Shown here: piece after piece, positions 33,001 through 59,878 of the stretch
Numbering within the stretch: position 1 is the stretch's first letter
Layout of the letters: every line of letters begins with the position of its first letter
Assembly (NCBI GenBank): GCA_032718475.1
Contig: JAUCBJ010001598.1
Span: forward strand, 67,731-131,730
Origin: Nemertoderma westbladi
Lineage: Eukaryota; Animalia; Xenacoelomorpha
Length of the DNA stretch: 64,000 nucleotides
Reading direction: 5' to 3'
Notes under the pieces: model-generated
Seen by the model: only the letters and a program-made list of their open reading frames with translations
Database searches by the model: none
What the model was told of the DNA's origin: nothing
Made by a program: the position numbers and the translations under genes

Positions 33001-33827
33001 CATGCACCCCGTTGAGTCTACAATTCTACGCTATCATTTGTTTCCCAGGCACCCCGTTGAGTCTACTATTCTACGCTATCATTTGTTTCCCAGGCACGCC
33101 GTTGAGTCTGTACTATTCTACCCTATCATTTGTTTCCCAGGCACTCCGTTGCGTCTACTATTCTACGCTATCATTTGTTTCCCAGGTACCCCGTTGAGTC
33201 TGTACTATTCTACGCTATCATTTGTTTCCCAGGCACCCCGTTGAGTCTGTACTATTCTACGCTATCATTTGTTTCCCATGCACCCCGTTGAGTCTGTCTG
33301 TACTATTCTACGATATCATTTGTTTCCCAGGCACCCCGTTGAGTCTGTACTATTCTACGCTATCATTTGTTTCCCAGGCACGCCGTTGAGTCTGTACTAT
33401 TCTACGCTATCATTTGTTTCCCAGTCACCCCGTTGAGTCTGTACTATTCTACGCTATCATTTGTTTCCCAGACACCCCGTTGAGTCTGTACTATTCTACG
33501 CTATCATTTGTTTCCCAGGCACCCCGTTGAGTCTACTATTCTACGCTATCATTTGTTTCCCAGGCACCCCGTTGAGTCTGTACTATTCTACGCTACCATT
33601 TGTTTCCCAGGCACTCCGTTGCGTCTACTATTCTACGCTATCATTTGTTTCCCAGGCACCCCGTTGAGTCTGTACTATTCTACGCTATCATTTGTTTCCC
33701 AGGCACCCCGTTGAGTCTGTACTATTCTACGCTATCATTTGTTTCCCAGGCACCCTGTTGAGTCTACTATTCTACGCTAGCATTTGTTTCCCAGGCACCC
33801 CGTTGAGTCTGTACTATTCTACGCTAT
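1..33827 (+). repeat. Intronic satellite, 47-bp unit CATTTGTTTCCCAG|GCACCCCGTTGAGTCTGTACTATTCTACGCTAT (45- and 51-bp variants), derived from the acceptor junction of the downstream beta-catenin exon; truncated by the window start
   Basis: Continuous tandem array; roughly 720 copies estimated from length/unit. The last unit (33781-33827) runs directly into unique coding sequence; its AG at 33793-33794 is the exon acceptor. Confidence 0.97.
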
Positions 33828-33996
33828 TATAACTCTACACAACCTGCTTCTGCACCTCGATGGCTCCAAGATGGCAGTCCGACAGGCTGGAGGCCTACAG
33901 AAGATGGTCGCTTTACTGAGTCGTAACAACGTTAAGTTTCTCGCTATAACCACGGATTGCCTCCAAATCCTGGCCTATGGGAATCAGGATAGCAAG
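33795..33996 (+). CDS. CTNNB1: Beta-catenin/armadillo exon A: (G)[67 protein letters not shown]
   Basis: Matches beta-catenin [41 protein letters not shown]...AYGNQESK. Bounded by tttcccAG and AAG|GTgggt. 202 bp, phase 2 to 0, the same size as human CTNNB1 exon 6 as I recall it. Confidence 0.96.
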
Positions 33997-35239
33997 GTGG
34001 GTGTCCCCAGTAAATCATTCGCACTCTGCGTTACCAATAAATAACGCATTTATATTATGTTAAAATATTAAACGAACGGATGAAGTGGTAGGAATATACA
34101 TTCACTACCGGTAACACAGTGTGTGATTGATAACTATAAGGTTTAATGGGGATTACCTGGTATTCCTCATTAAAACTTATAATTATATAGACCCTATCTT
34201 CTCTTCCTGTGCCACAATATAGTCTGATGTCTTTTACTATCTTTAAATAATATCATATAATGATTATAATCATATAACGACCACCCTCAACACTTTATTT
34301 TATTTGTATCATTCATACGCTATATGACACAATGAAATTTGAACATTTATCATTTAAATGTTATCATATGCGATTGTCTTGAATAATGCCTTGTTAAGGC
34401 TGTAGTGGTACCAGGCCTTTTAAACGGAGACTAGATTCACGATAATTTCATTTTTTTTTAATTTATCTTTATTAAGTGTTTTATAGTGCTTAATTTTCTG
34501 TTATAACCTGTTTTTAATACAGATACTAATTCGTTTATTGTTTTGGTTAGAATCTTCTATAACCAGGGTTTTTAGTGGAAAACAAAAGAAAGTCTGACAT
34601 ACTTAACATAGGGGCCCATATTCTGGCATTAAATACCCTCCCGCAATTTGGGAGGAGTGCTAATTATTATTTTATTTTATAATTAACTATAACAGATCGG
34701 AGCTCCGAGGTTTTATATACCGAGCGAGGCGAGGCGAGGTTAATAAAGAATCGAGAACTTGGTGACTCATTATTAACCATGCAATAAATAATTATTACCA
34801 TACTGTTGTTGTAACTGCAATAAAAACATTACTATATTATAAAAAAATAAAGCTAATAATTGACCATTAAGTTAACATAATGTAACAAAATTTCTTACAT
34901 CATTGTCTGAGTAGAGCACATTCATCGTTACAGATGTCGGTTTATTTATGTTAAACATCCCTACATGCGCTCGCTCGCTACAATAAAGTGCGCGTGTTGT
35001 AGAGCTGGAAAGTGATGATTTGTACACAATAATTTTAATAATATCCAATAATATACTTTATTTCTCTTTATTGAATAAATCAAGTCGTTACACTATACTA
35101 ATTATTACACATTATCTCTCTCACTTAACTTCTCAGACGCACAATCAATTATTTTCACCTGATTTCTCTATTTCCATTTTGCACTGCACATTTCTTAACT
35201 ACTAACTCTATTGATGATTGGTTTAATTTATTAACTTAT

Positions 35240-36859: not shown

Positions 36860-37915
36860 CACCTTACTATTGTATTAGCTAATTTACCAGACTAGCTTCC
36901 CCACCCTACTATGGTATTGGCTAGTTTACCAGAATAGTTTCCCCGCCCTCATATTGTATTAGCTAATTTACCAGACTAGTTTCCCGCCCTCCTATTGTAT
37001 TAGCTAATTTACCAGACTAGTTTCCCGCCCTCCTATTGTATTAGCTAGTTTACCAGACTAGTTTCCCCGCCCTCCTATTGTATTAGCTAGTTTAACAGAC
37101 TAGTTTATCCGCCTTACTATGGTATTGGCTAGTTTAACAGACTAGACCAGACTAGTTTCCTCGCCCTCCTATTCTACTGGCTAGTTTCACAGACTAGTTT
37201 CCCCGCCCTACTAATTGTATTAGCTAGTTTAACAGACTAGTTTATCCGCCTTACTATTGTATTAGTTAGTTTACCAGACTAGTTTCCACGCCCTACTATT
37301 GTATTGGCTAGTTTACCAGACTAGTTTCCCCTCCCTACTATTGTATTAGCTAGTTTAACAGACTAGTTTATCCGCCTTACTATTGTATTGGCTAGTTTAC
37401 CAGACTAGTTTCCACGCCCTACTATTGTATTGGCTAGTTTACCAGACTAATGTCCCCGCCCTACTAATTGTATTAGCTAGTTTACCAGACTAGTTTCCTC
37501 GCTCTCCTATTCTACTGGCTAGTTTGCCAGACTTTCTTCGCCCTACTATTGTATTGGTTAGTTTACCTGAATGAATAGTTTCCCCGCCCTACTATTGTAT
37601 TGGTTAGTTTACCTAAATAGTTTCCCCGCCCTACTATTGTATTAGTTAATTTACCAGACTAGTTTCCCCGCCCTACTATTGTATTGGTTAGTTTACCAGA
37701 CTAGTTTCTCCACCTTACTACTGTATTATATAATTTACCAGACTAGTTTCCACGCTAGTTTCCCCGCCCTACTATTCTACAGGCTAGTTTACCAGACTAG
37801 TTTCCCTACCCCCCCACCCCCATCCTACTATTTTATTGGCTAGTTTAATTTCCCTTGTATTAACTAGTTTACTCGACTATCGTCTACCTCCTATTGTATT
37901 GTATTGGTTAGTAGT
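36860..37915 (+). repeat. Degenerate ~43-bp minisatellite CTATTGTATTGGCTAGTTTACCAGACTAGTTTCCCCGCCCTA upstream of the exon B1 acceptor
   Basis: About two dozen diverged tandem copies that decay towards 37915. Confidence 0.88.
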
Positions 37916-37946
37916 TTACTTGTATTATTTAACTTACATACTACAG

Positions 37947-38091
37947 CTGATTCTATTGGCTAGTGGCGGTCCGCAGGAACTTTTGCGTATAATGCAGAGC
38001 TACTCGTACGAGAAGCTACTCTGGACTACGTCCCGAGCACTCAAAGTTCTCAGTGTTTGTCCCAATAATAAACCGGCAATTGTCACAGCAG
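37947..38091 (+). CDS. CTNNB1: Beta-catenin exon B1 (canonical): [48 protein letters not shown](G)
   Basis: Matches [49 protein letters not shown]. ctacAG acceptor, G|GTtagt donor, 145 bp, phase 0 to 1. Confidence 0.96.
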
Positions 38092-38379
38092 GTTAGTGTT
38101 GGAGCAGCTGTTTTATTGACCTATAAGTATTTGGCTCTATAGATATGTCCTCAGGTAAGTTTATTGAGGTTCGCTCTTGAAACTCAAGGTGAGTCATTCC
38201 CTTATCGCCATGCTTCACCCTTATCGACTGCTATTATCTCATTTTCTCCTGCCTGTTTGAACTTTCTCCTTTCCCCGACTGTCTGCTTTCTACTCTTCTT
38301 GCATGGACATTTTTCTTGCTAGTGTTTCTATCGTTATTTTCATGTTGTATTTGTTCTCTCAAATCTTCCCAACTTCTAG

Positions 38380-38524
38380 ACTGGGATCTTCCAATGCGGT
38401 GGTATTGAGTATCTTGTTGACATCGTTCGTGGGGCCAAGTACGAGAAACTTCTGTGGACATCGAGTCGTGTTCTTAAAGTACTCAGTGTCGACGGTGACT
38501 GTAAAGCAGCCATCGTTCGATTAG
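38380..38524 (+). CDS. CTNNB1: Duplicated alternative exon B2 (putative mutually exclusive with B1): [48 protein letters not shown](G)
   Basis: Hand-translated; this frame is not in the ORF track. Same 145-bp length and phases as B1, open frame, pyrimidine tract plus ttctAG acceptor, AG|GTaata donor, and a conserved YEKLLWTxSRxLKVLSV core. Confidence 0.88.
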
Positions 38525-38807
38525 GTAATATTAGTACCACGGTCTCTATGGTATGGTATGTGTTACGCCGTGTCGGTGTGTGTAAATTTTTAGACAGATT
38601 GGAAAATGTATATACGTAACCTGGATTTACCTTGGAATTACCTGGGATATAGGGGAGATTCCAATGTTTCCCAGGTTTTTCGCACGACGCGAGTCTATTT
38701 TGTCACTAAGTTATTTTATAAAGTTACTAACTAAGATACGTTATTCGATAAAAAAAAGGTGAGGAAACTGATGGTCTATTTCATTAAGTTTAATCCTTCC
38801 TTACTTG

Positions 38808-38927
38808 GTCTGTCTGTCTCTGAATATGTATGTCTGTCTCTGAATATGTCTGTATGTCTTCATCTATGTATTTATGTCTGTTTCTATGTATAGGATTTAT
38901 GTCTGTATGTTTGTATGACTGTCTGTA
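38808..38927. repeat. Degenerate (TGTC/TGTA)n microsatellite
   Basis: Imperfect tetranucleotide runs. Confidence 0.7.
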
Positions 38928-39651
38928 TAATTAAAATGTTTATCATCTGCTGCTATGAATTCGCTTCAACAAAACTTTGTTGGCATAATATTGAGAGAAC
39001 GTATATGTATTGATCTTAATCTTTTGCTAAATATATCAAAACGCTTAATTAAAATCGACTACGCTTACGTTTTGCTTTAATTTTCCTCGAAAGTGCTTTG
39101 ACTGTCCTTCCTGTACATTGTCCATATTCGTTGTCCAGTTGTCCATTGCTTCTATAAGTGCGTAAATGTTGAAAAAAAAATGGACGATAAGTAAGTTTGG
39201 AAGTTTATAACAACGTCTGGAGCGTAAGTGATATAAATGGTTCTTACTCAGGTTGAACTTAGGTAAGTTTATGTTAATCTGGTAGGATTAATAAATTATT
39301 GTTAATTTAGTTTATAAAAACGATTTGTATTTTATAATTTGTCTTGACAAATGTGAATTTTTTAATCTTTGTAATCAGTACTGTGTGTACATGATTTGCA
39401 GTGTCTTGAGTTTTCGAACCATCTTCACATTTGTTTGTGAGGTCTGAATAAAACAGATTTAAACACGTAATAAATAATACCATTTCGTCTTTCCTTTCAA
39501 TGTCATAATAAAATTGAAAGAGAAACCTTAAAACGTGTGTTTATTAAATCTCAGTCACAAATCTTAACTAACTGCAGCAGCTCGGTAGATAGACTTTCAC
39601 TGCCGTCACCCATTTCTTTATAATGTTTAACCATCCATCTGCTATCTTTAG

Positions 39652-39791
39652 GGGGGATGCAGGCCCTTGGAGACCATCTGGATCACCCAAGTCACAGACT
39701 CGTACAGAACTGTCTGTGGACTCTGCGAAACCTTTCCGATGCCGCTACTAGGGAGGATAACCTAGATAACTTACTCTACCGACTTGTATTG
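39652..39791 (+). CDS. CTNNB1: Beta-catenin exon C: [47 protein letters not shown]
   Basis: Matches [34 protein letters not shown]. ctttAG acceptor (phase 1), TTG|GTaggt donor. Confidence 0.94.
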
Positions 39792-40178
39792 GTAGGTTAT
39801 CATCTACATAATAATAAACTACACAAACTTTTATTTATATTTGTATTCGGTTTGAATTATGTGTTTTTATTAACTTGTAGTAGATACAATCTCCGGCAGT
39901 TAGTTAGTACTACCAAGGGGAACTTCATTTATTAACAGTTACCATTTAAGGATACAAGGCAGAGATGCGCTTTGGCTAGTCCCTTTAAATAATTAGTATC
40001 TAATTAAAAACTTTTTTTCTGTACATTTTTTCTAATTCGATCTTTGATTTTTATAATTTGTTGTGCAATAGTGGTATGGGAACGATTCGCCAACATTATC
40101 TGAATGGCTAAGTAATTATCAGCCTGCAACTTAATTATCGACTGTACTCCTATATCTTGTTTCATTATAAATCTACAG

Positions 40179-40376
40179 ATGTTGAAGAGCCCCGATAGCA
40201 ACGTCGTCACTTGCGCATGCGGCGTCCTTAGCAACCTCACGTGTAACAACTCGCGTAACAAGATGGTTGTCGTACAGTCTGGTGGGATCCCGAGTCTGGT
40301 AAAGATAATGTTCGGTAACGACAGAGCCGGGGACCCTAACGAAGCCCGAGCCCAGTCCGATACTATCGAACCCGCT
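40179..40376 (+). CDS. CTNNB1: Beta-catenin exon D: [66 protein letters not shown]
   Basis: Matches [24 protein letters not shown]...TEPA. ctacAG acceptor, GCT|GTgagt donor, phase 0 to 0. Confidence 0.94.
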
Positions 40377-40723
40377 GTGAGTTCATTGTTGTGGCCCTAA
40401 CTCAATATAGACCTAATAGGCATTATCATATTGTTACATTATACATTAATTATACAAATTGTAATTTATAATAATAATGCTTAATATTAATATTTACTTA
40501 AAGATTACTTTCACGAAGTTACTTAAAATGACAAAAGAAAATATTGTCAGCAAAAATTTACCTAACTCAACACAACATAGTTTGCAGATTATTTTCATAG
40601 CCTGGAGGATTAACGTTCGACTTTTTTTTTTAGAAAAATCAGTACCAGAATTGGTTTTAAAATTGATCAGTACATTATAATGATATTTTCATTGTATAAT
40701 TTAATTTTAACCTGTTCCACTAG

Positions 40724-40969
40724 GTGTGCGCCCTCCGCCATCTCACATCCCGTCACCAGCTGGCCGAGAGAGCGCAAAACGAAGTCCGGGAACATTACGG
40801 ACTCCCCGTACTGATTAAAGTCCTACAGCCTCCTAGCAACCGTTGGCCAATCATCAAGGCGGTTATCGGCCTTATACGCAACTTGGCTTTGTCCCAGGCC
40901 AATCACGCCCCCTTGCGGGAGCACGGGGTATTGCCTCGTCTAGTACAACTGCTCCAGAAAGCATACCAG
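40724..40969 (+). CDS. CTNNB1: Beta-catenin exon E: [29 protein letters not shown]...[11 protein letters not shown]
   Basis: Matches [29 protein letters not shown]...GLIRNLAL...NHAPLRE. actAG acceptor, CAG|GTtcgt donor; a second in-frame GT follows 40978. Confidence 0.93.
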
Positions 40970-41145
40970 GTTCGTCCGGTAACTATATCGCACTATGTTA
41001 CACCGAATGCAGCGTCGGGTCTGATAGATAAACAATAATTGCATTACTAATACCAATAATGTTAAAAAATTTATTTTAGTTACCAAGACAAATTTCCGTC
41101 TATTCATACTACCCAACAAGTAGTTTTATCTCTACTATTTCCACG

Positions 41146-42262
41146 TTGTCCACTATTTTTTTCCTTTTCACAGTGTCCACTAATTTCACCCTCTCCACCG
41201 TGTTCACTAATTCCTCCCTTTCACTATGTCCACTAATGCCACCCTTGTCACCGTGTCCATTAGTTCACCCTTCCCCCGTGTCCACTAATTCCTCCCTTTT
41301 CACTATGTCCACTAATGCCGCCCTTTTCACCGTGTCCACTAATTCCTCCCTTTTCACTATGTCCACTAATGCCGCCCTTTTCACCGTGTCCACTAATGCC
41401 GCCCTTTTCACCGTGTCCACTAATGCCACCCTTGTCACAGTGACTATTGATTCACCCTTCCCCGTGCCACCTAATTCCTCCCTTTTCACTATGTCCACTA
41501 ATGCCGCCCTTTTCACCGTGTCCACTAATGCCGCCCTTTTCACGGTGTCCACTAATGTCACCCTTGACACAGTGACTATTGATTCCCCCTTTCCCCATGC
41601 CCACTAATTCCTCCCTTTTCACTATGTCCACTAATGCCACCCTTTTCACAGTGACCATTAATTCTCCCTTTCCCCGTGTCCACTAATTCATCCCGTTTCA
41701 CTGCCTCCACTAGTTTCACCCTTTTCACCGTGTCCATTAGTTCACCCTTCCCCCGTGTCCACTAATTCCTCCCTTTTCACTATGTCCACTAATGCCGCCC
41801 TTTTCACCGTGTCCACTAATGCCACCCTTGTCACAGTGACTGTTGATTCACCCTTCAACCTAGTCCACTAATTCCTCCCTTTTCACTATGTCCACTAATG
41901 CCGCCCTTTTCACCGTGTCCACTAATGCCGCTCTTTTCACCGTGTGTCCACTAATGCCACCCTTGTCACAGTGACTATTGATTCACCCTTCCCCGTGCCA
42001 CCTAATTCCTCCCTTTTCACTATGTCCACTAATGCCGCCCTTTTCACCGTGTCCACTAATGCCGCCCTTTTCACCGTGTCCACTAATGTCACCCTTGACA
42101 CAGTGACTATTGATTCCCCCTTTCCCCATGCCCACTAATTCCTCCCTTTTCACTATGTCCACTAATGCCGCCCTTTTCACCGTGTCCACTAATGCCGCCC
42201 TTTTCACAGTGTCACTAATTCATCACTTTTACCCAGTGTCCACTAATTTGCGCCATTTTCAC
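41146..42262 (+). repeat. ~27-bp minisatellite CCACTAATGCCGCCCTTTTCACCGTGT ending just before the exon F acceptor
   Basis: Visible tandem periodicity with variant subunits and an internal duplication at ~531-bp offset (41461 vs 41992). Confidence 0.9.
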
Positions 42263-42278
42263 TTTGTCACTTTATTAG

Positions 42279-42443
42279 GAACGCCGTTCTAACAATGTCG
42301 GACAGCTACCGGCTCTTTACGAGGGTATCAGCATGGACGATATTATCGAAGGTACCGTGGGCGCGCTGCATCAGTTAGCGAGAGATAAACACAACCGAGC
42401 CTACATCCGCCAGTTACAGTACACCATACCTATATTCGTAGAG
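42279..42443 (+). CDS. CTNNB1: Beta-catenin exon F: [55 protein letters not shown]
   Basis: Matches [40 protein letters not shown]. tattAG acceptor, GAG|GTtagt donor, phase 0 to 0. Confidence 0.92.
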
Positions 42444-42647
42444 GTTAGTGGTTCTGTACTAGTAGAGATAAACACAACCGAGCCTACATCCGCCAGTTAC
42501 AGTACACCATACCTATATTCGTAGAGGTTAGTGGTTCTGTACTAATAAAGATAAACACAACCGAGCCTACATCCGCCAGTTACAGTACACCATACCTATA
42601 TTCGTAGAGGTTAGTGGTTCTGTACTAATAGAGATTACAACCGAGCC
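42381..42647 (+). repeat. 83-bp tandem repeat (3 full copies plus a partial) spanning the exon F donor junction
   Basis: Units start at 42381, 42464, 42547 and 42630. Each full unit is 63 nt of exon end plus 20 nt of intron, with GAG|GTTAGT at 42444, 42527 and 42610. Confidence 0.95.
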
Positions 42648-42736
42648 AGTTGTATTTAGTTCATATTACCCATTTTCTGCTTTCTGATCCTCATTTTCCC
42701 TAGTAACATAATGATATTATGTTATTTGTTATGCAG

Positions 42737-42893
42737 TTGATCTACATTTACAAGAACAACGATAACATCCTCCGCGTAACCACGGCAGTTCTCTGCGAGC
42801 TGAGTCAGGATAAAGAGGGGGCAGATTATATTGAACAGCAGAATGCTACCCCGGCGATTACAGACCTACTACATTCGAAGAACGAAGGAATAG
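42737..42893 (+). CDS. CTNNB1: Beta-catenin exon G: LIYIYKNNDNILRVTTAVLCELSQDKEGADYIEQQNATPAITDLLHSKNEGI(A)
   Basis: Matches [50 protein letters not shown]. tgcAG acceptor, AG|GTaagt donor, phase 0 to 1. Confidence 0.94.
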
Positions 42894-47185: not shown

Positions 47186-47434
47186 CAACCTACGCCGCTG
47201 CAATCCTATTCCGTATGTCGGAAGATAAGCCGAACGACTACCGTAAGCGACTGAGCGTAGAGCTATCGAGCAGTTTAACCCGGGGCGACGAGTGGGGTGG
47301 AGACGCGGGTATGGATCAAGGGGGCTTCCCGCCTGGCCCCCCCGAGGAAGGTATGTGGAGTGGGGCGACGGCTGCCTCTCCAGCCGATACTAAACACCAC
47401 CACCTACACGGTACACCGCACACACCTGCTTCAG
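47186..47434 (+). CDS. CTNNB1: Beta-catenin exon H: [37 protein letters not shown]...HTPAS(G)
   Basis: Matches [31 protein letters not shown]. catAG acceptor. The 3' end is uncertain: CAG|GTgagc after 47434 or AAG|GTatgt after 47350, both phase 1. Confidence 0.88.
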
Positions 47435-48265: not shown

Positions 48266-51200
48266 ATCTCATTATATTATCTTTATAGGCCATTCTAGCA
48301 TTAACTCGTCTCATTATCCGATCCAGGCCACTATCATTAACCCATTGTATCTCATTATCCGATCCAGGCCACTACCATTAACCCATTGTATCTCATTATC
48401 GGATCCAGGCCACTACCATTAGCCCATTGTATCTCATTATCCGATCCAGGCCACTATCATTAACCCATTGTATCTCATTATCCGATCCAGGCCACTATCA
48501 TTAACCCATTGTATCTCATTATCCGATCCAGGCCACTACCATTAGCCCATTGTATCTCATTATCCGATCCAGGCCACTATCATTAGCCCATTGTATCTCA
48601 TTATCCGATCCAGGCCACTATCATTAACCCATTGTATCTCATTATCCGATCCAGGCCACTATCATTAACCCATTGTATCTCATTATCCGATCCAGGCCAC
48701 TATCATTAACCCATTGTATCTCATTATCCGATCCAGGCCACTATCATTAACCCATTGTATCTCATTATCCGATCCAGGCCACTACCATTAGCCCATTGTA
48801 TCTCATTATCCGATCCAGGCCACTATCATTAACCCATTGTATCTCATTATCCGATCCAGGCCACTACCATTAGCCCATTGTATCTCATTATCCGATCCAG
48901 GCCACTACCATTAACCCATAGTATCTCATTATCCGATCCAGGCCACTACCATTAGCCCATTGTATCTCATTATCCGATCCAGGCCACTATCATTAACCCA
49001 TTGTATCTCATTATCCGATCCAGGCCACTACCATTAACCCATTGTATCTCATTATCCGATCCAGGCCACTATCATTAACCCATTGTATCTCATTATCCGA
49101 TCCAGGCCACTACCATTAACCCATTGTATCTCATTATCCGATCCAGGCCACTACCATTAACCCATTGTATCTCATTATCCGATCCAGGCCACTATCATTA
49201 ACCCATTGTATCTCATTATCCGATCCAGGCCACTACCATTAACCCATTGTATCTCATTATCCGATCCAGGCCACTATCATTAACCCATTGTATCTCATTA
49301 TCCGATCCAGGCCACTACCATTAACCCATTGTATCTCATTATCCGATCCAGGCCACTACCATTAACCCATTGTATCTCATTATCCGATCCAGGCCACTAT
49401 CATTAACCCATTGTATCTCATTATCCGATCCAGGCCACTACCATTAACCCATTGTATCTCATTATCCGATCCAGGCCACTATCATTAACCCATTGTATCT
49501 CATTATCCGATCCAGGCCACTACCATTAACCCATTGTATCTCATTATCCGATCCAGGCCACTATCATTAACCCATTGTATCTCATTATCCGATCCGTGCC
49601 ACTACCATTAACCCATTGTATCTCATTATCCGATCCAGGCCACTACCATTAACCCATTGTATCTCATTATCCGATCCAGGCCACTACCATTAACCCATTG
49701 TATCTCATTATCCGATCCAGGCCACTACCATTAACCCATTGTATCTCATTATCCGATCCAGGCCACTATCATTAACCCATTGTATCTCATTATCCGATCC
49801 GTGCCACTATCATTAACCCATTGTATCTCATTATCCGATCCAGTCCACGACCATTTACCCGTTGTATCTCATTATCCGATCCAGGCCACTATCATTAACC
49901 CATTGTATCTCATTATCTGATCCAGGCCACTACCATTAACCCATTGTATCTCATTATCCGATCCAGGCCACTATCATTAACCCATTGTATCTCATTATCC
50001 GATCCAGGCCACTATCATTAACCCATTGTATCTCATTATCCGATCCAGGCCACTATCATTAACCCATTGTATCTCATTATCTGATCCAGGCCACTACCAT
50101 TAACCCATTGTATCTCATTATCCGATCCAGGCCACTACCATTAACCCATTGTATCTCATTATCCGATCCAGGCCACTATCATTAACCCATTGTATCTCAT
50201 TATCCGATCCAGGCCACTATCATTAACCCATTGTATCTCATTATCCGATCCAGTCCACTACCATTTACCCGTTGTATCTCATTATCCGATCCAGTCCACT
50301 ACCATTTACCCATTGTATCTCATTATCCGATCCAGTCCACTACCATTTACCCATTGTATCTCATTATCCGATCCAGGCCACTACCATTAACCCATTGTAT
50401 CTCATTATCCGATCCAGGCCACTATCATTAACCCATTGTATCTCATTATCCGATCCGTGCCACTATCATTAACCCATTGTATCTCATTATCCGATCCAGT
50501 CCACTACCATTTACCCGTTGTATCTCATTATCCGATCCAGGCCACTATCATTAACCCATTGTATCTCATTATCTGATCCAGGCCACTACCATTAACCCAT
50601 TGTATCTCATTATCCGATCCAGGCCACTATCATTAACCCATTGTATCTCATTATCCGATCCAGGCCACTATCATTAACCCATTGTATCTCATTATCCGAT
50701 CCAGGCCACTATCATTAACCCATTGTATCTCATTATCTGATCCAGGCCACTACCATTAACCCATTGTATCTCATTATCCGATCCAGGCCACTACCATTAA
50801 CCCATTGTATCTCATTATCCGATCCAGGCCACTATCATTAACCCATTGTATCTCATTATCCGATCCAGGCCACTATCATTAACCCATTGTATCTCATTAT
50901 CCGATCCAGTCCACTACCATTTACCCGTTGTATCTCATTATCCGATCCAGTCCACTACCATTTACCCATTGTATCTCATTATCCGATCCAGTCCACTACC
51001 ATTTACCCATTGTATCTCATTATCCGATCCAGTCCACTACCATTTACCCGTTGTATCTCATTATCCGATCCAGTCCACTACCATTTACCCATTGTATCTC
51101 ATTATCCGATCCAGTCCACTACCATTTGCCCATTGTATCTCATTATCCGATCCAGTCCACTACCATTTACCCATTGTATCTCATTATCCGATCCAGTCCA

Positions 51201-54200
51201 CTACCATTTACCCATTGTATCTCATTATCCGATCCAGTCCACTACCATTTGCCCATTGTATCTCATTATCCGATCCAGTCAACTACCATTAACCCATTGT
51301 ATCTCATTATCCGATCCAGGCCACTGCCATTAACCCATTGTATCTCATTATCCGATCCGGGCCACTATCATTAACCCATTGTATCTCATTATCCGATCCA
51401 GGCCACTATCATTAACCCATTGTATCTCATTATCCGATCCAGTCCACTACCATTAACCCACTGTATATCATTATCTGATCCAGGCCACTACCATTAACCC
51501 ATTGTATCTCATTATCCGATCCAGGACACTACCATTTGCCCATTGTATCTCATTATCCGATCCATGTCACTACCATTAACCCACTGTATCTCATTATCCG
51601 ATCCAGGACACTACCATTTGCCCATTGTATCTCATTATCCGATCCAGGCCACTACCATTAACCCATTGTATCTCATTATCCGATCCAGGACACTACCATT
51701 TGCCCATTGTATCTCATTATCCGATCCATGTCACTACCATTAACCCACTGTATCTCATTATCCGATCCAGGACACTACCATTAACCCATTGTATCTCATT
51801 ATCCGATCCAGACCACTACTATTAACCCATTGTATCTCATTATCCGATCCAGACCACTACCATTAACCCATTGTATCTCATTATCCGATCCAGACCACTA
51901 CTATTAACCCATTGTATCTCATTATCCGATCCAGACCACTACTATTAACCCATTGTATCTCATTATCCGATCCAGACCACTACCATTAACCCATTGTATC
52001 TCATTATCCGATCCAGACCACTACTATTAACCCATTGTATCTCATTATCCGATCCAGTCCACTACCATTTACCCGTTGTATCTCATTATCCGATCCAGGC
52101 CACTATCATTAACCCATTGTATCTCATTATCTGATCCAGGCCACTACCATTAACCCATTGTATCTCATTATCCGATCCAGGCCACTATCATTAACCCATT
52201 GTATCTCATTATCCGATCCAGTCCACTACCATTTGCCCATTGTATCTCATTATCCGATCCAGTCCACTACCATTTGCCCATTGTATCTCATTATCCGATC
52301 CAGTCCACTACCATTTACCCATTGTATCTCATTATCCGATCCAGTCCACTCCCATTTACCCATTGTATCTCATTATCCGATCCAGTCCACTACCATTTAC
52401 CCATTGTATCTCATTATCCGATCCAGTCCACTACCATTTGCCCATTGTATCTCATTATCCGATCCAGTCAACTACCATTAACCCATTGTATCTCATTATC
52501 CGATCCAGGCCACTGCCATTAACCCATTGTATCTCATTATCCGATCCAGGCCACTATCATTAACCCATTGTATCTCATTATCCGATCCAGGCCACTATCA
52601 TTAACCCATTGTATCTCATTATCCGATCCAGTCCACTACCATTAACCCACTGTATCTCATTATCTGATCCAGGCCACTACCATTAACCCATTGTATCTCA
52701 TTATCCGATCCAGGACACTACCATTTGCCCATTGTATCTCATTATCCGATCCATGTCACTACCATTAACCCACTGTATCTCATTATCCGATCCAGGACAC
52801 TACCATTAACCCATTGTATCTCATTATCCGATCCAGACCACTACTATTAACCCATTGTATCTCATTATCCGATCCAGACCACTACCATTAACCCATTGTA
52901 TCTCATTATCCGATCCAGACCACTACTATTAACCCATTGTATCTCATTATCCGATCCAGTCCACTACCATTTACCCGTTGTATCTCATTATCCGATCCAG
53001 GCCACTATCATTAACCCATTGTATCTCATTATCTGATCCAGGCCACTACCATTAACCCATTGTATCTCATTATCCGATCCAGGCCACTATCATTAACCCA
53101 TTGTATCTCATTATCCGATCCAGGCCACTATCATTAACCCATTGTATCTCATTATCAGATCCAGGCCACTATCATTAACCCATTGTATCTCATTATCTGA
53201 TCCAGGCCACTACCATTAACCCATTGTATCTCATTATCCGATCCAGGCCACTACCATTAACCCATTGTATCTCATTATCCGATCCAGGCCACTATCATTA
53301 ACCCATTGTATCTCATTATCCGATCCAGGCCACTATCATTAACCCATTGTATCTCATTATCCGATCCAGTCCACTACCATTTACCCGTTGTATCTCATTA
53401 TCCGATCCAGTCCACTACCATTTACCCATTGTATCTCATTATCCGATCCAGTCCACTACCATTTACCCATTGTATCTCATTATCCGATCCAGTCCACTAC
53501 CATTTACCCGTTGTATCTCATTATCCGATCCAGTCCACTACCATTTGCCCATTGTATCTCATTATCCGATCCAGTCCACTACCATTTACCCATTGTATCT
53601 CATTATCCGATCCAGTCCACTACCATTTACCCATTGTATCTCATTATCCGATCCAGTCCACTACCATTTGCCCATTGTATCTCATTATCCGATCCAGTCA
53701 ACTACCATTAACCCATTGTATCTCATTATCCGATCCAGGCCACTGCCATTAACCCATTGTATCTCATTATCCGATCCAGGCCACTATCATTAACCCATTG
53801 TATCTCATTATCCGATCCAGGCCACTATCATTAACCCATTGTATCTCATTATCCGATCCAGTCCACTACCATTAACCCACTGTATCTCATTATCTGATCC
53901 AGGCCACTACCATTAACCCATTGTATCTCATTATCCGATCCAGGACACTACCATTTGCCCATTGTATCTCATTATCCGATCCATGTCACTACCATTAACC
54001 CACTGTATCTCATTATCCGATCCAGGACACTACCATTAACCCATTGTATCTCATTATCCGATCCAGACCACTACTATTAACCCATTGTATCTCATTATCC
54101 GATCCAGACCACTACCATTAACCCATTGTATCTCATTATCCGATCCAGACCACTACTATTAACCCATTGTATCTCATTATCCGATCCATGTCACTATCAT

Positions 54201-57200
54201 TAACCCACTGTATCTCATTATCCGATCCAGGCCACTACCATTAACCCACTGTATCTCATTATCCGATCCAGGCCACTACCATTAACCCACTGTATCTCAT
54301 TATCCGATCCAGGCCACTATCATTAACCCATTGTATCTCATTATCAGATCCAGGCCACTACCATTAACACATTGTATCTCATTATCCGATCCAGACCACT
54401 ACTATTAACCCATTGTATCTCATTATCCGATCCAGGCCACTACCATTAACCCATTGCATCTCATTATCCGATCCAGGCCACTATCATTAACCCATTGTAT
54501 CTCATTATCCGATCCAGGCCACTACCATTAACCCATTGTATCTCATTATCCGATCCAGGCCACTACTATTAACCCATTGTATCTCATTATCCGATCCAGG
54601 CCACTACCATTAACCCATTGTATCTCATTATCCGATCCAGGACACTACTATTAACCCATTGTATCTCATTATCCGATCCAGGCCACTAGCATTAACCCAT
54701 TGTATCTCATTATCCGATCCAGGCCACTATCATTAACCCATTGTATCTCATTATCCGATCCAGGCCACTAGCATTAACCCATTGTATCTCATTATCCGAT
54801 CCAGGCCACTATGATGAACCCATTGTATCTCATTATCCGATCCAGGCCACTAGCATTAACCCATTGTATTTCATTATCCGATCCAGGCCACTATCATTAA
54901 CCCATTGTATCTCATTATCCGATCCAGGCCACTAGCATTAACCCATTGTATCTCATTATCCGATCCAGACCACTGCCATTAACCCATTGTATCTCATTAT
55001 CCGATCCAGGCCACTATGATGAACCCATTGTATCTCATTATCCGATCCAGGCCACTACCATTAACCCATTGTATCTCATTATCCGATCCGTGCCACTATC
55101 ATTAACCCATTGTATCTCATTATCCGATCCAGGCCACTACCATTAACCCATTGTATCTCATTATCCGATCCAGGCCACTACCATTAACCCATTGTATCTC
55201 ATTATCCGATCCAGGCCACTATCATTAACCCATTGTATCTCATTATCCGATCCAGACCACTGCCATTAACCCATTGTATCTCATTATCCGATCCAGGCCA
55301 CTATCATGAACCCATTGTATCTCATTATCCGATCCAGACCACTACCATTAACCCATTGTATCTCATTATCCAATCCAGGCCACTATCATTAACCCAGTGT
55401 ATCTCATTATCCGATCCAGGCCACTATCATGAACCCATTGTATCTCATTATCCGATCCAAGCCACTACCATTAACCCATTGTATCTCATTATCCGATCCA
55501 AGCCACTACCATTAACCCATTGTATCTCATTATCCGATCCAGGCCACTACTATTAACCCATTGTATCTCATTATCCGATCCAGACCACTACTATTAATTA
55601 ACCCATTGTATCTCATTATCCGATCCAAGCCACTACCATTAACCCATTGTATCTCATTATCCGATCCAGGCCACTACTATTAACCCATTGTATCTCATTA
55701 TCCGATCCAGACCACTACTATTAATTAACCCATTGTATCTCATTATCCGATCCAGGCCACTACCATTAACCCATTGCATCTCATTATCCGACCCACACCA
55801 CTACCATTTGCCCATTGTATCTCATTATCTGATCCAGACCACTATCATTAACCCATTGTATCTCATTATCCGATCCAGGCCACTACCATTAACCCATTGT
55901 ATCTCATTATCCGATCCAGACCACTACCATTAACCCATTGTATCTCATTATCCGATCCAGGCCACTATTATTAACCCATTGTATCTCATTATCCGATCCA
56001 GACCACTACCATTTAACCCACTGTATCTCATTATCTGATCCAGACCACTATCATTAACCAATTGTATCTCATTATCCGATCCAGGCCACTACCATTAACC
56101 CATTGTATCTCATTATCCGATCCAGACCACTACCATTAACCCATTGTATCTCATTATCCGATCCAGGCCACTATTATTAACCCATTGTATCTCATTATCT
56201 GATCCAGGCCACTATCATTAACCCACTGTATCTCATTATCTGATCCAGGCCACTACCATTAACCCATTGTATCTCATTATCCGATCCAGGCCACTACCAT
56301 TTACCCGTTGTATCTCATTATCTGATCCAGGCCACTACCATTAACCCATTGTATCTCATTATCTGATCCAGGCCACTACCATTAACCCATTGTATCTCAT
56401 TATCCGATCCAGACCACTACCATTAACCCATTGTATCTCATTATCCGATCCAGGCCACTATTATTAACCCATTGTATCTCATTATCTGATCCACGCCACT
56501 ATCATTAACCCACTGTATCTCATTATCTGATCCAGGCCACTACCATTAACCCATTGTATCTCATTATCCGATCCAAGCCACTACCATTAACCCATTGTAT
56601 CTCATTATCTGATCCAGGCCACTATCCTTAACACACTGTATCTCATTATCTGATCCAGGCCACTACCATTAACCCATTGTATCTCATTATCCGATCCAGG
56701 CCACTACCATTTACCCGTTGTATCTCATTATCTGATCCAAGCCACTACCATTAACCCATTGTATCTCATTATCTGATCCAGGCCACTATCATTAACCCAC
56801 TGTATCTCATTATCTGATCCAGGCCACTACCATTAACCCATTGTATCTCATTATCCGATCCAGACCACTACCATTAACCCATTGTATCTCATTATCCGAT
56901 CCAGGCCACTATTATTAACCCATTGTATCTCATTATCTGATCCAGGCCACTATCATTAACCCACTGTATCTCATTATCTGATCCAGGCCACTACCATTAA
57001 CCCATTGTATCTCATTATCCGATCCAGGCCACTACCATTTACCCGTTGTATCTCATTATCTGATCCAGGCCACTACCATTAACCCATTGTATCTCATTAT
57101 CTGATCCAGGCCACTACCATTAACCCATTGTATCTCATTATCCGATCCAGACCACTACCATTAACCCATTGTATCTCATTATCCGATCCAGGCCACTATC

Positions 57201-59743
57201 ATTAACCCATTGTATCTCATTATCTGATCCAGGCCACTACCATTTACCCGTTGTATCTCATTATCTGATCCAGGCCACTACCATTAACCCATTGTATCTC
57301 ATTATCCGATCCAGGCCACTACCATTTACCCGTTGTATCTCATTATCTGATCCAGGCCACTACCATTAACCCATTGTATCTCATTATCCGATCCAGGCCA
57401 CTACCATTAACCCACTGTATCTCATTATCTGATCCAGGCCACTACCATTAACCCATTGTATCTCATTATCCGATCCAGACCACTACCATTAACCCATTGT
57501 ATCTCATTATCCGATCCAGGCCACTATTATTAACCCATTGTATCTCATTATCCGATCCAGACCACTACCATTTAACCCACTGTATCTCATTATCTGATCC
57601 AGACCACTATCATTAACCAATTGTATCTCATTATCCGATCCAGACCACTACCATTAACCCATTGTATCTCATTATCCGATCCAGGCCACTATTATTAACC
57701 CATTGTATCTCATTATCTGATCCAGGCCACTATCATTAACCCACTGTATCTCATTATCTGATCCAGGCCACTACCATTAACCCATTGTATCTCATTATCC
57801 GATCCAGGCCACTACCATTTACCCGTTGTATCTCATTATCTGATCCAGGCCACTACCATTAACCCATTGTATCTCATTATCTGATCCAGGCCACTACCAT
57901 TAACCCATTGTATCTCATTATCCGATCCAGACCACTACCATTAACCCATTGTATCTCATTATCCGATCCAGGCCACTATTATTAACCCATTGTATCTCAT
58001 TATCTGATCCACGCCACTATCATTAACCCACTGTATCTCATTATCTGATCCAGGCCACTACCATTAACCCATTGTATCTCATTATCCGATCCAGGCCACT
58101 ATTATTAACCCATTGTATCTCATTATCTGATCCACGCCACTATCATTAACCCACTGTATCTCATTATCTGATCCAGGCCACTACCATTAACCCATTGTAT
58201 CTCATTATCCGATCCAAGCCACTACCATTAACCCATTGTATCTCATTATCTGATCCAGGCCACTATCCTTAACCCACTGTATCTCATTATCTGATCCAGG
58301 CCACTACCATTAACCCATTGTATCTCATTATCCGATCCAGGCCACTACCATTTACCCGTTGTATCTCATTATCTGATCCAAGCCACTATTATTAACCCAT
58401 TGTATCTCATTATCTGATCCAGGCCACTATCATTAACCCACTGTATCTCATTATCTGATCCAGGCCACTACCATTAACCCATTGTATCTCATTATCCGAT
58501 CCAGGCCACTACCATTTACCCGTTGTATCTCATTATCTGATCCAGGCCACTACCATTAACCCATTGTATCTCATTATCTGATCCAGGCCACTACCATTAA
58601 CCCATTGTATCTCATTATCCGATCCAGACCACTACCATTAACCCATTGTATCTCATTATCCGATCCAGGCCACTATTATTAACCCATTGTATCTCATTAT
58701 CTGATCCACGCCACTATCATTAACCCACTGTATCTCATTATCTGATCCAGGCCACTACCATTAACCCATTGTATCTCATTATCCGATCCAAGCCACTACC
58801 ATTAACCCATTGTATCTCATTATCTGATCCAGGCCACTATCCTTAACCCACTGTATCTCATTATCTGATCCAGGCCACTACCATTAACCCATTGTATCTC
58901 ATTATCCGATCCAGGCCACTACCATTTACCCGTTGTATCTCATTATCTGATCCAAGCCACTACCATTAACCCATTGTATCTCATTATCTGATCCAGGCCA
59001 CTATCATTAACCCACTGTATCTCATTATCTGATCCAGGCCACTACCATTAACCCATTGTATCTCATTATCCGATCCAGACCACTACCATTAACCCATTGT
59101 ATCTCATTATCCGATCCAGGCCACTATTATTAACCCATTGTATCTCATTATCTGATCCAGGCCACTATCATTAACCCACTGTATCTCATTATCTGATCCA
59201 GGCCACTACCATTAACCCATTGTATCTCATTATCCGATCCAGGCCACTACCATTTACCCGTTGTATCTCATTATCTGATCCAGGCCACTACCATTAACCC
59301 ATTGTATCTCATTATCTGATCCAGGCCACTACCATTAACCCATTGTATCTCATTATCCGATCCAGACCACTACCATTAACCCATTGTATCTCATTATCCG
59401 ATCCAGGCCACTATCATTAACCCATTGTATCTCATTATCTGATCCAGGCCACTACCATTTACCCGTTGTATCTCATTATCTGATCCAGGCCACTACCATT
59501 AACCCATTGTATCTCATTATCCGATCCAGGCCACTACCATTTACCCGTTGTATCTCATTATCTGATCCAGGCCACTACCATTAACCCATTGTATCTCATT
59601 ATCCGATCCAGGCCACTACCATTAACCCACTGTATCTCATTATCTGATCCAGGCCACTACCATTAACCCATTGTATCTCATTATCCGATCCAGACCACAA
59701 CCATTTAACCCACTGTATCTCATTATCTGATCCAGGCCACTAC
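48266..59743 (+). repeat. Intronic satellite, 41-bp unit TTAACCCATTGTATCTCATTATCCGATCCAG|GCCACTAYCA, derived from the acceptor junction of the terminal exon
   Basis: Continuous tandem array; roughly 280 copies estimated from length/unit. The last unit runs into GCCACTACGACCAC of the terminal exon. Confidence 0.96.
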
Positions 59744-59878
59744 GACCACCCGCCGTTGGATACGATCTTAGACGACCTACCAGATCTGGGTCCCAACATT
59801 GGTGATCATATCGGTGCCATGGATACCAGCTCGGGCCATCCAATGGCTGGACACGGTTGGTACGATTCTGATCTTTAA
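59736..59878 (+). CDS. CTNNB1: Beta-catenin terminal exon: (G)HYDHPPLDTILDDLPDLGPNIGDHIGAMDTSSGHPMAGHGWYDSDL*
   Basis: Hand-translated. Ends in WYDSDL-TAA, the counterpart of beta-catenin's WFDTDL PDZ-binding end, and contains LPDLG as in the vertebrate tail. Phase-1 acceptor at 59734-59735 fits the exon H donor. Confidence 0.92.

Follow-up and report, generated by a model that had tools for sequence, protein, structure and literature searches.

Whether one gene could make two versions of beta-catenin, a signalling and adhesion protein that is normally near-invariant, is the question raised by a 64,000-nt stretch of Nemertoderma westbladi DNA (contig JAUCBJ010001598.1, positions 67,731 to 131,730; hereafter the window). 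The plus strand of the window carries the 3′ two-thirds of a beta-catenin gene, whose introns are packed with tandem arrays; the part for the N-terminal phosphodegron and the alpha-catenin site falls upstream of the window. Two candidates for exon B, named B1 and B2, lie between exons A and C. A sequence-only reading had described B2 as a hidden, mutually exclusive exon giving an alternative armadillo-repeat segment. An open frame runs through exons A, B, C, D, E, F, G and H and the last exon. The coding features are as follows; X4 and X5 are two of the public sequencing runs described below.

33795 to 33996, plus strand: exon A, 202 nt, constitutive and upstream, ending in the codon for the K312 equivalent; mismatch-free X4 and X5 contigs; open frame.
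37947 to 38091, plus strand: exon B1, 145 nt, a standard-type armadillo repeat 5 segment with AG/GT ends and an open frame.
38380 to 38524, plus strand: exon B2, 145 nt, the derived copy and the form in spliced contigs, with joints 33996>38380 and 38524>39652.
39652 to 39791, plus strand: exon C, 140 nt, X4 joints at both sides.
40179 to 40376, plus strand: exon D, 198 nt, X4 joints.
40724 to 40969, plus strand: exon E, 246 nt, an X4 joint and a loose end, and a loose end in X5.
42279 to 42443, plus strand: exon F, 165 nt, its start matching the loose end after E; open frame.
42737 to 42893, plus strand: exon G, 157 nt, predicted from splice sites and open frame.
47186 to 47434, plus strand: exon H, 249 nt, predicted from splice sites and open frame.
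59736 to 59878, plus strand: coding part of the last exon up to the stop codon, predicted, the open frame closing in a WYDSDL motif.

The armadillo repeat core belongs to the beta-catenin/Armadillo/plakoglobin subfamily, with E of about 1e-20 for B1 and about 1e-9 for B2 against solved beta-catenins. The in-window coding part is 64–69% identical to the top 40 fetched proteins, among which annelid, bivalve and hemichordate entries lead. In a quick tree of 41 rows, the window protein forms a long branch (0.79) outside every supported group. A protein search with exon E returned beta-catenin-type matches for 901 of 982 candidates, and the search with exon D returned zero matches. The constitutive protein is divergent too: exon D has an insertion ahead of the conserved EPA motif, and exons D, F and G are 51–55% identical to references (window 40310–40376 and 42279–42893).

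The window begins with a 47-nt array (1–33827) of at least 33.8 kb, whose unit comprises the acceptor and first ~30 nt of exon A. Within 2 mismatches it has 719 copies, 653 of them with an intact AG, and only the last gives an open frame. The X4 and X5 contigs use this last acceptor, and run X3 has the repeat junction as DNA. The array is a very large "mirage" minisatellite in the sense of PMC3087553. A 41-nt array of ~279 copies at 48309–59743 likewise has in its unit the last-exon acceptor and first bases (259 matches; AG is intact in 246, and the frame is open at 59736 alone). The exon F 3′ end, together with its donor, recurs in three near-identical 83-nt copies at 42381–42635, and a 27-nt array at 41163–42262, with a branch-point-like CACTAAT and a pyrimidine run, ends just ahead of the exon F acceptor. 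A 42-nt array (36865–37755) stops ~190 nt short of the B1 acceptor and might weaken recognition of B1.

B1 and B2 are tandem copies, each of 145 nt between AG and GT, entered in phase 0, left in phase 1 and separated by 288 nt, exactly as had been read from the letters. Their peptides are identical at 23 of 48 residues and differ at 25. Silent codon differences are found at 14 of the 23 identical residues; third positions are equal at 16/48 and four-fold sites at 3/13; dS is saturated. Identity is concentrated in the core helix (15/17) as against the flanks (8/31), which bears out the earlier description of a kept YEKLLWTxSRxLKVLSV helix with remodelled surroundings. In a simple neutral simulation model without indels, none of 20,000 runs at each of five divergence levels gave both an open frame and the observed B1/B2 identity pattern, in agreement with the purifying selection proposed for B2. 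GC is exon-like in the two copies (0.48 and 0.47, versus 0.25–0.40 in five intron stretches), and the B1 donor hexamer is identical to that of exon F. Both peptides, of 48 residues each, align to one common stretch of solved beta-catenin chains, and neither was assigned to a family by Pfam.

The first half of B2 (first 18 residues) scores 24–32 against repeats 3 and 7 and 14–19 against repeat 5 in five references. A chimeric origin of this half is disfavoured because the length and both phases of B2 equal those of B1, and drift towards the general armadillo consensus is the preferred reading.

The reading frame admits only one copy at a time. A+B1+C..H and A+B2+C..H are both without stops. Joining B1 to B2 brings a stop 27 nt into B2, as 145 is not divisible by 3, and the predicted frameshift is thereby established; skipping both copies (A>C) also leads to stops.

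Six public runs (X1–X6) were found, none recorded as RNA or labelled by tissue and all available as contigs only. Four were compared with 37800–41150 and four with 33770–34200, all six being used in total. In X4 and X5, two samples from two studies, the exons alone are covered apart from one dispersed repeat, and introns are skipped at GT..AG; from this we infer that both runs are RNA, although they are labelled "DNA?" without a library record. In each of them a single contig joins A>B2>C with 0 other letters in A, B2 and C, at a depth of 698 in X4 and 46.5 in X5. The 3′ loose end of exon A in X4 and X5 contigs is the start of B2. Both junctions that had been named as a check on B2, 33996>38380 and 38524>39652, are thus present. 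X6 gave nothing at 33770–34200. B2 is a spliced, selected exon, and in these two samples it is probably the common form.

B1 has zero cover and no junction in the X4 and X5 contigs, and no B1>B2 joint occurs among the joints of the examined runs. The idea of B2 as the hidden, minor exon is therefore reversed, B2 being the only form seen. Of the claim that the two must be alternatives, the part that rests on the frame holds, while splicing of B1 is unseen in the two intron-less runs. Zero cover in contigs is not absence, rare branches being dropped in assembly: in the pipeline behind the contigs, graphs are simplified and single k-mers thrown away (PMC12424806), and a minor branch carrying B1 could disappear with them. 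Among the variants, 21 of 23 substitution rows are intronic, with about one expected per exon; B1 has a single, synonymous variant and B2 has none, a comparison of little power. One X5 contig has 40910 C>A, which would change Pro to Thr in exon E.

We consider it probable that an old tandem duplication produced a mutually exclusive pair in which B2 is the common form and B1 a restricted alternative. The duplication would have given two 145-nt copies of the armadillo repeat 5 exon; B2 would be spliced between A and C, and B1 would be used at a low level or in unsampled tissues or stages. Mutual exclusivity in this proposal would rest on the conservation of B1 and on the frame.

Exclusion would likely be backed by frameshift with nonsense-mediated decay, which is the commonest case of mutually exclusive exons (MXE) in the human atlas and is sufficient (PMC5740500). 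The introns next to the copies hold further candidate elements:

38092 to 38379, plus strand: B1–B2 intron, 288 nt, with ~190 nt pyrimidine-rich and one internal AG ahead of the B2 acceptor.
38116 to 38120, plus strand: putative YTRAY branch-point-like match from a motif scan, its A38119 lying 27 nt past the B1 donor.
38152 to 38160, plus strand: juxtaposed acceptor/donor motif YAG/GTAAGT, either a candidate recursive site or a possible rival donor for B1 that would add an immediate stop.
39260 to 39268, plus strand: second YAG/GTAAGT motif, in the B2–C intron, with 14 of 15 nt in common with the first; repeat family D13; putative.

The YTRAY match 27 nt past the B1 donor is the sole one in the last 270 nt of the B1–B2 intron, and each of the other eight introns has a match less than 50 nt from its acceptor. 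The steric limit for donor-to-branch-point spacing is less than 50 nt (PMC5740500). The first YAG/GTAAGT motif lies 35 nt past A38119 and 63 nt past B1. Such juxtaposed motifs mark ratchet points, the recursive splice sites known from Ubx (PMC3245913). The other seven introns have none internally, and a Markov model of the two host introns, run post hoc, gave two motifs in 3 of 20,000 runs. Window-wide the motif is not enriched (3 found versus 1.52 expected; 20 of 100 shuffles reach 3), and the host introns, of 288 and 1127 nt, are not the large introns of ratchet points, the whole A-to-B2 span being ~4.4 kb. It is a speculative and doubtful idea that the exon A donor might splice to the first motif, remove B1 and regenerate a donor for B2. 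As tentative is the notion that a recursive site 63 nt behind B1 might be reachable by the exon A donor only. The same site, 38152–38160, is alternatively a candidate rival donor of B1 that would lead to an immediate stop.

Possible microexons of 12 and 11 nt, each with AG ahead, are found at 38143–38154 and 39252–39262; they are absent from the spliced contigs. RNA structure at 37900–38560 is unremarkable (fold z = 0.21; 12 of 20 shuffles equally good), and the inverted repeats there, compared with no shuffle control, are short or loose with no evident docking/selector pattern. U12 incompatibility is ruled out by ordinary GT donors in all nine introns.

What the exchange does to the protein depends on the residues replaced. 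Human numbering of the segment is taken by us to be position + 312. This offset agrees with K312, Y333 and K345 in a table of PMC7776579. B2 retains the equivalents of Y333, E334, K335, W338, R342, K345 and K354, and the K312 equivalent sits in the shared exon A. Its changes include L313T, I314G, P321I, E323Y, R326D, Y331A, T340S, C350D, N353C and P355A. The kept helix lines the ligand groove of beta-catenin. K345 has been linked to the binding of APC, for which it is needed, and of TCF, and Y333 is a phosphosite (PMC7776579); K335 is mutated in liver cancer (PMC8018973). Fragment models, guided by an alignment of standard-type segments, have the same three helices for B1 and B2 (6/8–18, 22–35 and 39–47). 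The helix after K312 (2–6) in the B1 model is coil in the B2 model, both at low confidence. The top 22 fold matches of the B2 model are beta-catenin or plakoglobin chains, with a best rmsd of 0.8 and all with E of at least 0.6. The predicted fold of B2 is the same helical repeat, in which the groove helix is preserved and the surrounding helices and loops are rebuilt.

The two isoforms might share out adhesion and signalling between them, or keep cadherin binding apart from that of TCF, APC and Axin, in the way that separate genes do in planarians and nematodes, and different partner preferences were indeed what the sequence-only reading proposed. With 25 of 48 residues different, the helix after K312 altered in the low-confidence B2 model, and an acid at 350 and Cys at 353 shared with the fast-evolving Intoshia and Macrostomum proteins, such a switch is conceivable. 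B2 has also lost Y331, which with K335 is an E-cadherin-binding residue; however, both were judged non-essential, and ctenophore proteins without Y331 still bind E-cadherin (PMC11613877). Moreover, the groove residues listed above, K335, W338, R342, K345, Y333 and K354, are all present in B2, K312 is common to both forms, and many changes in exons D, F and G are common to both isoforms. A sharp functional split is therefore unlikely, and it would be compatible with the splicing part of the favoured explanation. Since the groove residues are kept, tuned affinity or stability for the same groove ligands appears likelier than an outright partner switch, and the losses at Y331, C350, N353 and P355, together with those just past K312, may leave room for such tuning.

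In a bolder form of the proposal, the exon switch divides jobs: the derived repeat 5 would serve everyday use, the ancestral repeat would be kept back for a particular stage or cell type, the two would differ in how they bind cadherin or are captured by the destruction complex, and a recursive site behind each copy would enforce the choice. We regard this as an outside chance that deserves mention. If true, it would be a splicing-level counterpart of the planarian and nematode gene duplications that separate adhesion from Wnt signalling.

Another possibility is that B2 has replaced B1, being now constitutive, and that B1 was retired too recently to have decayed. The absence of B1 from both intron-less runs fits this, as does the stronger donor-like site 63 nt past B1, which would add an immediate stop. 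The conservation of B1 was compared with a reference set of 89 full-length proteins (700–950 aa) among 120 listed matches. In these 89 animal beta-catenins, 35 of the 48 segment columns are near-invariant. B1 has 80% mean identity to the references and retains 31 of the 35 columns; B2 retains 20 and changes 15 (B1 versus B2, p = 0.006). Retention in the other exons is 34/36 for A, 22/22 for C, 25/32 for D, 46/49 for E, 16/23 for F, 22/31 for G and 16/16 for H. B1 is statistically like the other seven pooled (Fisher p = 1.0) and does not differ from A+C+E (p = 0.22). Its four changes at near-invariant columns, of which the V343A and V325L equivalents occur in 0/89 references, could be early decay, and so count in favour of replacement.

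Against replacement, the splice sites of B1 are intact, its GC is exon-like, its only variant is synonymous, and the missing cover comes from two samples, both as contigs from the pipeline described above (PMC12424806). The silent sites between the copies are saturated while B1 has stayed conserved, so selection must have acted on B1 through the greater part of that interval, and by the same argument B1 would still be translated. Both copies thus appear to be under selection. Even a recent retirement would require long alternative use of the pair, and we hold replacement to be improbable.

It is very improbable that another locus, be it a paralogue or a processed retrocopy, is the source of the spliced contigs. 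The "DNA?" labels and missing library records would allow it, but the contigs differ from A, B2, C, D and E by 0–1 letters, the introns are uncovered in X4 and X5 bar the one dispersed repeat, and the DNA-like runs X1 and X2 have none of the exon joints; a retrocopy would in any case still record a B2-containing mRNA. B2 as a pseudoexon or assembly artefact is scarcely credible, even in a gene full of tandem duplications at exon borders and with partial copies of the same exon in introns of 3/80 other loci, for both B2 junctions are found in two studies, contradicting the junction-less pseudoexon that the sequence-only reading had named as its refuting case, silent sites are saturated with the core helix kept, and one contig of the DNA-like run X2 (37896–38605) carries B1 and B2 together, which rules out haplotype stacking or misassembly.

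The occurrence of the pair elsewhere was sought in several collections. A metagenome scan found 227 related stretches, of which the best 80 were fetched. In 19 of the 80 loci both neighbouring exons are present across introns. These loci fall into 13 groups at 90% identity, and for 9 of these groups the examined member shows an exon of 145 nt whose two splice sites lie at equivalent places. With a profile that scores B2 in the window at 49.7 bits, no second full copy was detected in the best 80 of the 227 loci, the 9 comparable groups included. Partial 3′ duplicates of the same exon lie in downstream introns of 3 of the 80 loci (L012:872–934, L034:1082–1146 and L073:2158–2308); they are possible raw material for exon duplication, and L073 is possibly an assembly artefact.

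Among proteins, a search for B2-type relatives gave 9 matches among 14 candidates, all of the standard type, and the B2-type segment is absent among 103 representatives. The 247 fetched proteins include 223 with the segment, 124 of them distinct, none of B2 type; the closest segment is identical to B2 at 29 of 48 residues, and no fetched segment has more than 6 of the 25 B2-distinguishing residues. P0010, the highest-ranking representative to have two stretches, is a predicted sturgeon protein; its two copies are identical, and it is no parallel case. These samples, small and probably drawn from distant animals, show that a B2-type second copy is rare; they do not support uniqueness.

The available literature text, including that of PMC5643146, PMC10167241 and PMC3141441 and excluding most subscription papers, describes no mutually exclusive beta-catenin exons. 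CTNNB1 and JUP are absent from 10 supplementary files of the human MXE atlas, with 1,400-row tables that hold PKM and FGFR2; two further files are outside this count. The mechanism is known; what appears to be new is the gene concerned and that the derived copy is the dominant one.

The segment is near-fixed in beta-catenin and holds K335 and K345, and the message seen alters it yet keeps the groove helix. The pair offers a natural 48-residue swap in an otherwise identical protein, with which the repeat 5 surfaces that balance adhesion, signalling and degradation can be tested. Exon duplication inside the core would be an added route to beta-catenin diversity besides gene duplication and C-terminal truncation.

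The locus can be compared with known systems. By the MXE cluster criteria of Pillmann 2011 (PMC3228551) and Hatje 2017 (PMC5740500), B1 and B2 are neighbouring internal exons with equal length, compatible splice sites and frame, homologous peptides and a frameshift on joint inclusion. They resemble in this the PKM exons, FGFR2 IIIb/IIIc and Drosophila CadN and Mhc, where homologous peptides also fill one structural slot. Unlike in the classic pairs, what is observed is the derived copy: both B2 junctions occur in 2/2 intron-less runs, and B1 has none in these contigs.

In insects, alternative splicing of one gene yields a second beta-catenin protein, Neural Armadillo (NArm; PMC5643146). In NArm exon 6 is left out and the C-terminus is truncated, whereas the present gene would swap 48 residues in the repeat core of a full-length protein, the B2 form being open through exon H. 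Planarian beta-catenin 1–4, the four C. elegans genes, the insect arm duplicates and vertebrate plakoglobin likewise diversify one bifunctional protein. Those sets are whole-gene duplications, whereas here one exon is duplicated and its specialisation is putative.

Ratchet points are described in large introns, whereas the host introns of the motifs beside B1 and B2 measure 288 and 1127 nt, the pyrimidine run is short, and the motifs are recognised from their letters. The mirage minisatellites of amphioxus arise by tandem amplification of intron/exon borders (PMC3087553). Similar border amplification is abundant elsewhere in this gene and is a plausible source of the exon duplication. Mirages, however, are partial copies of recent origin and are removed by splicing, whereas B2 is a whole, old, spliced exon.
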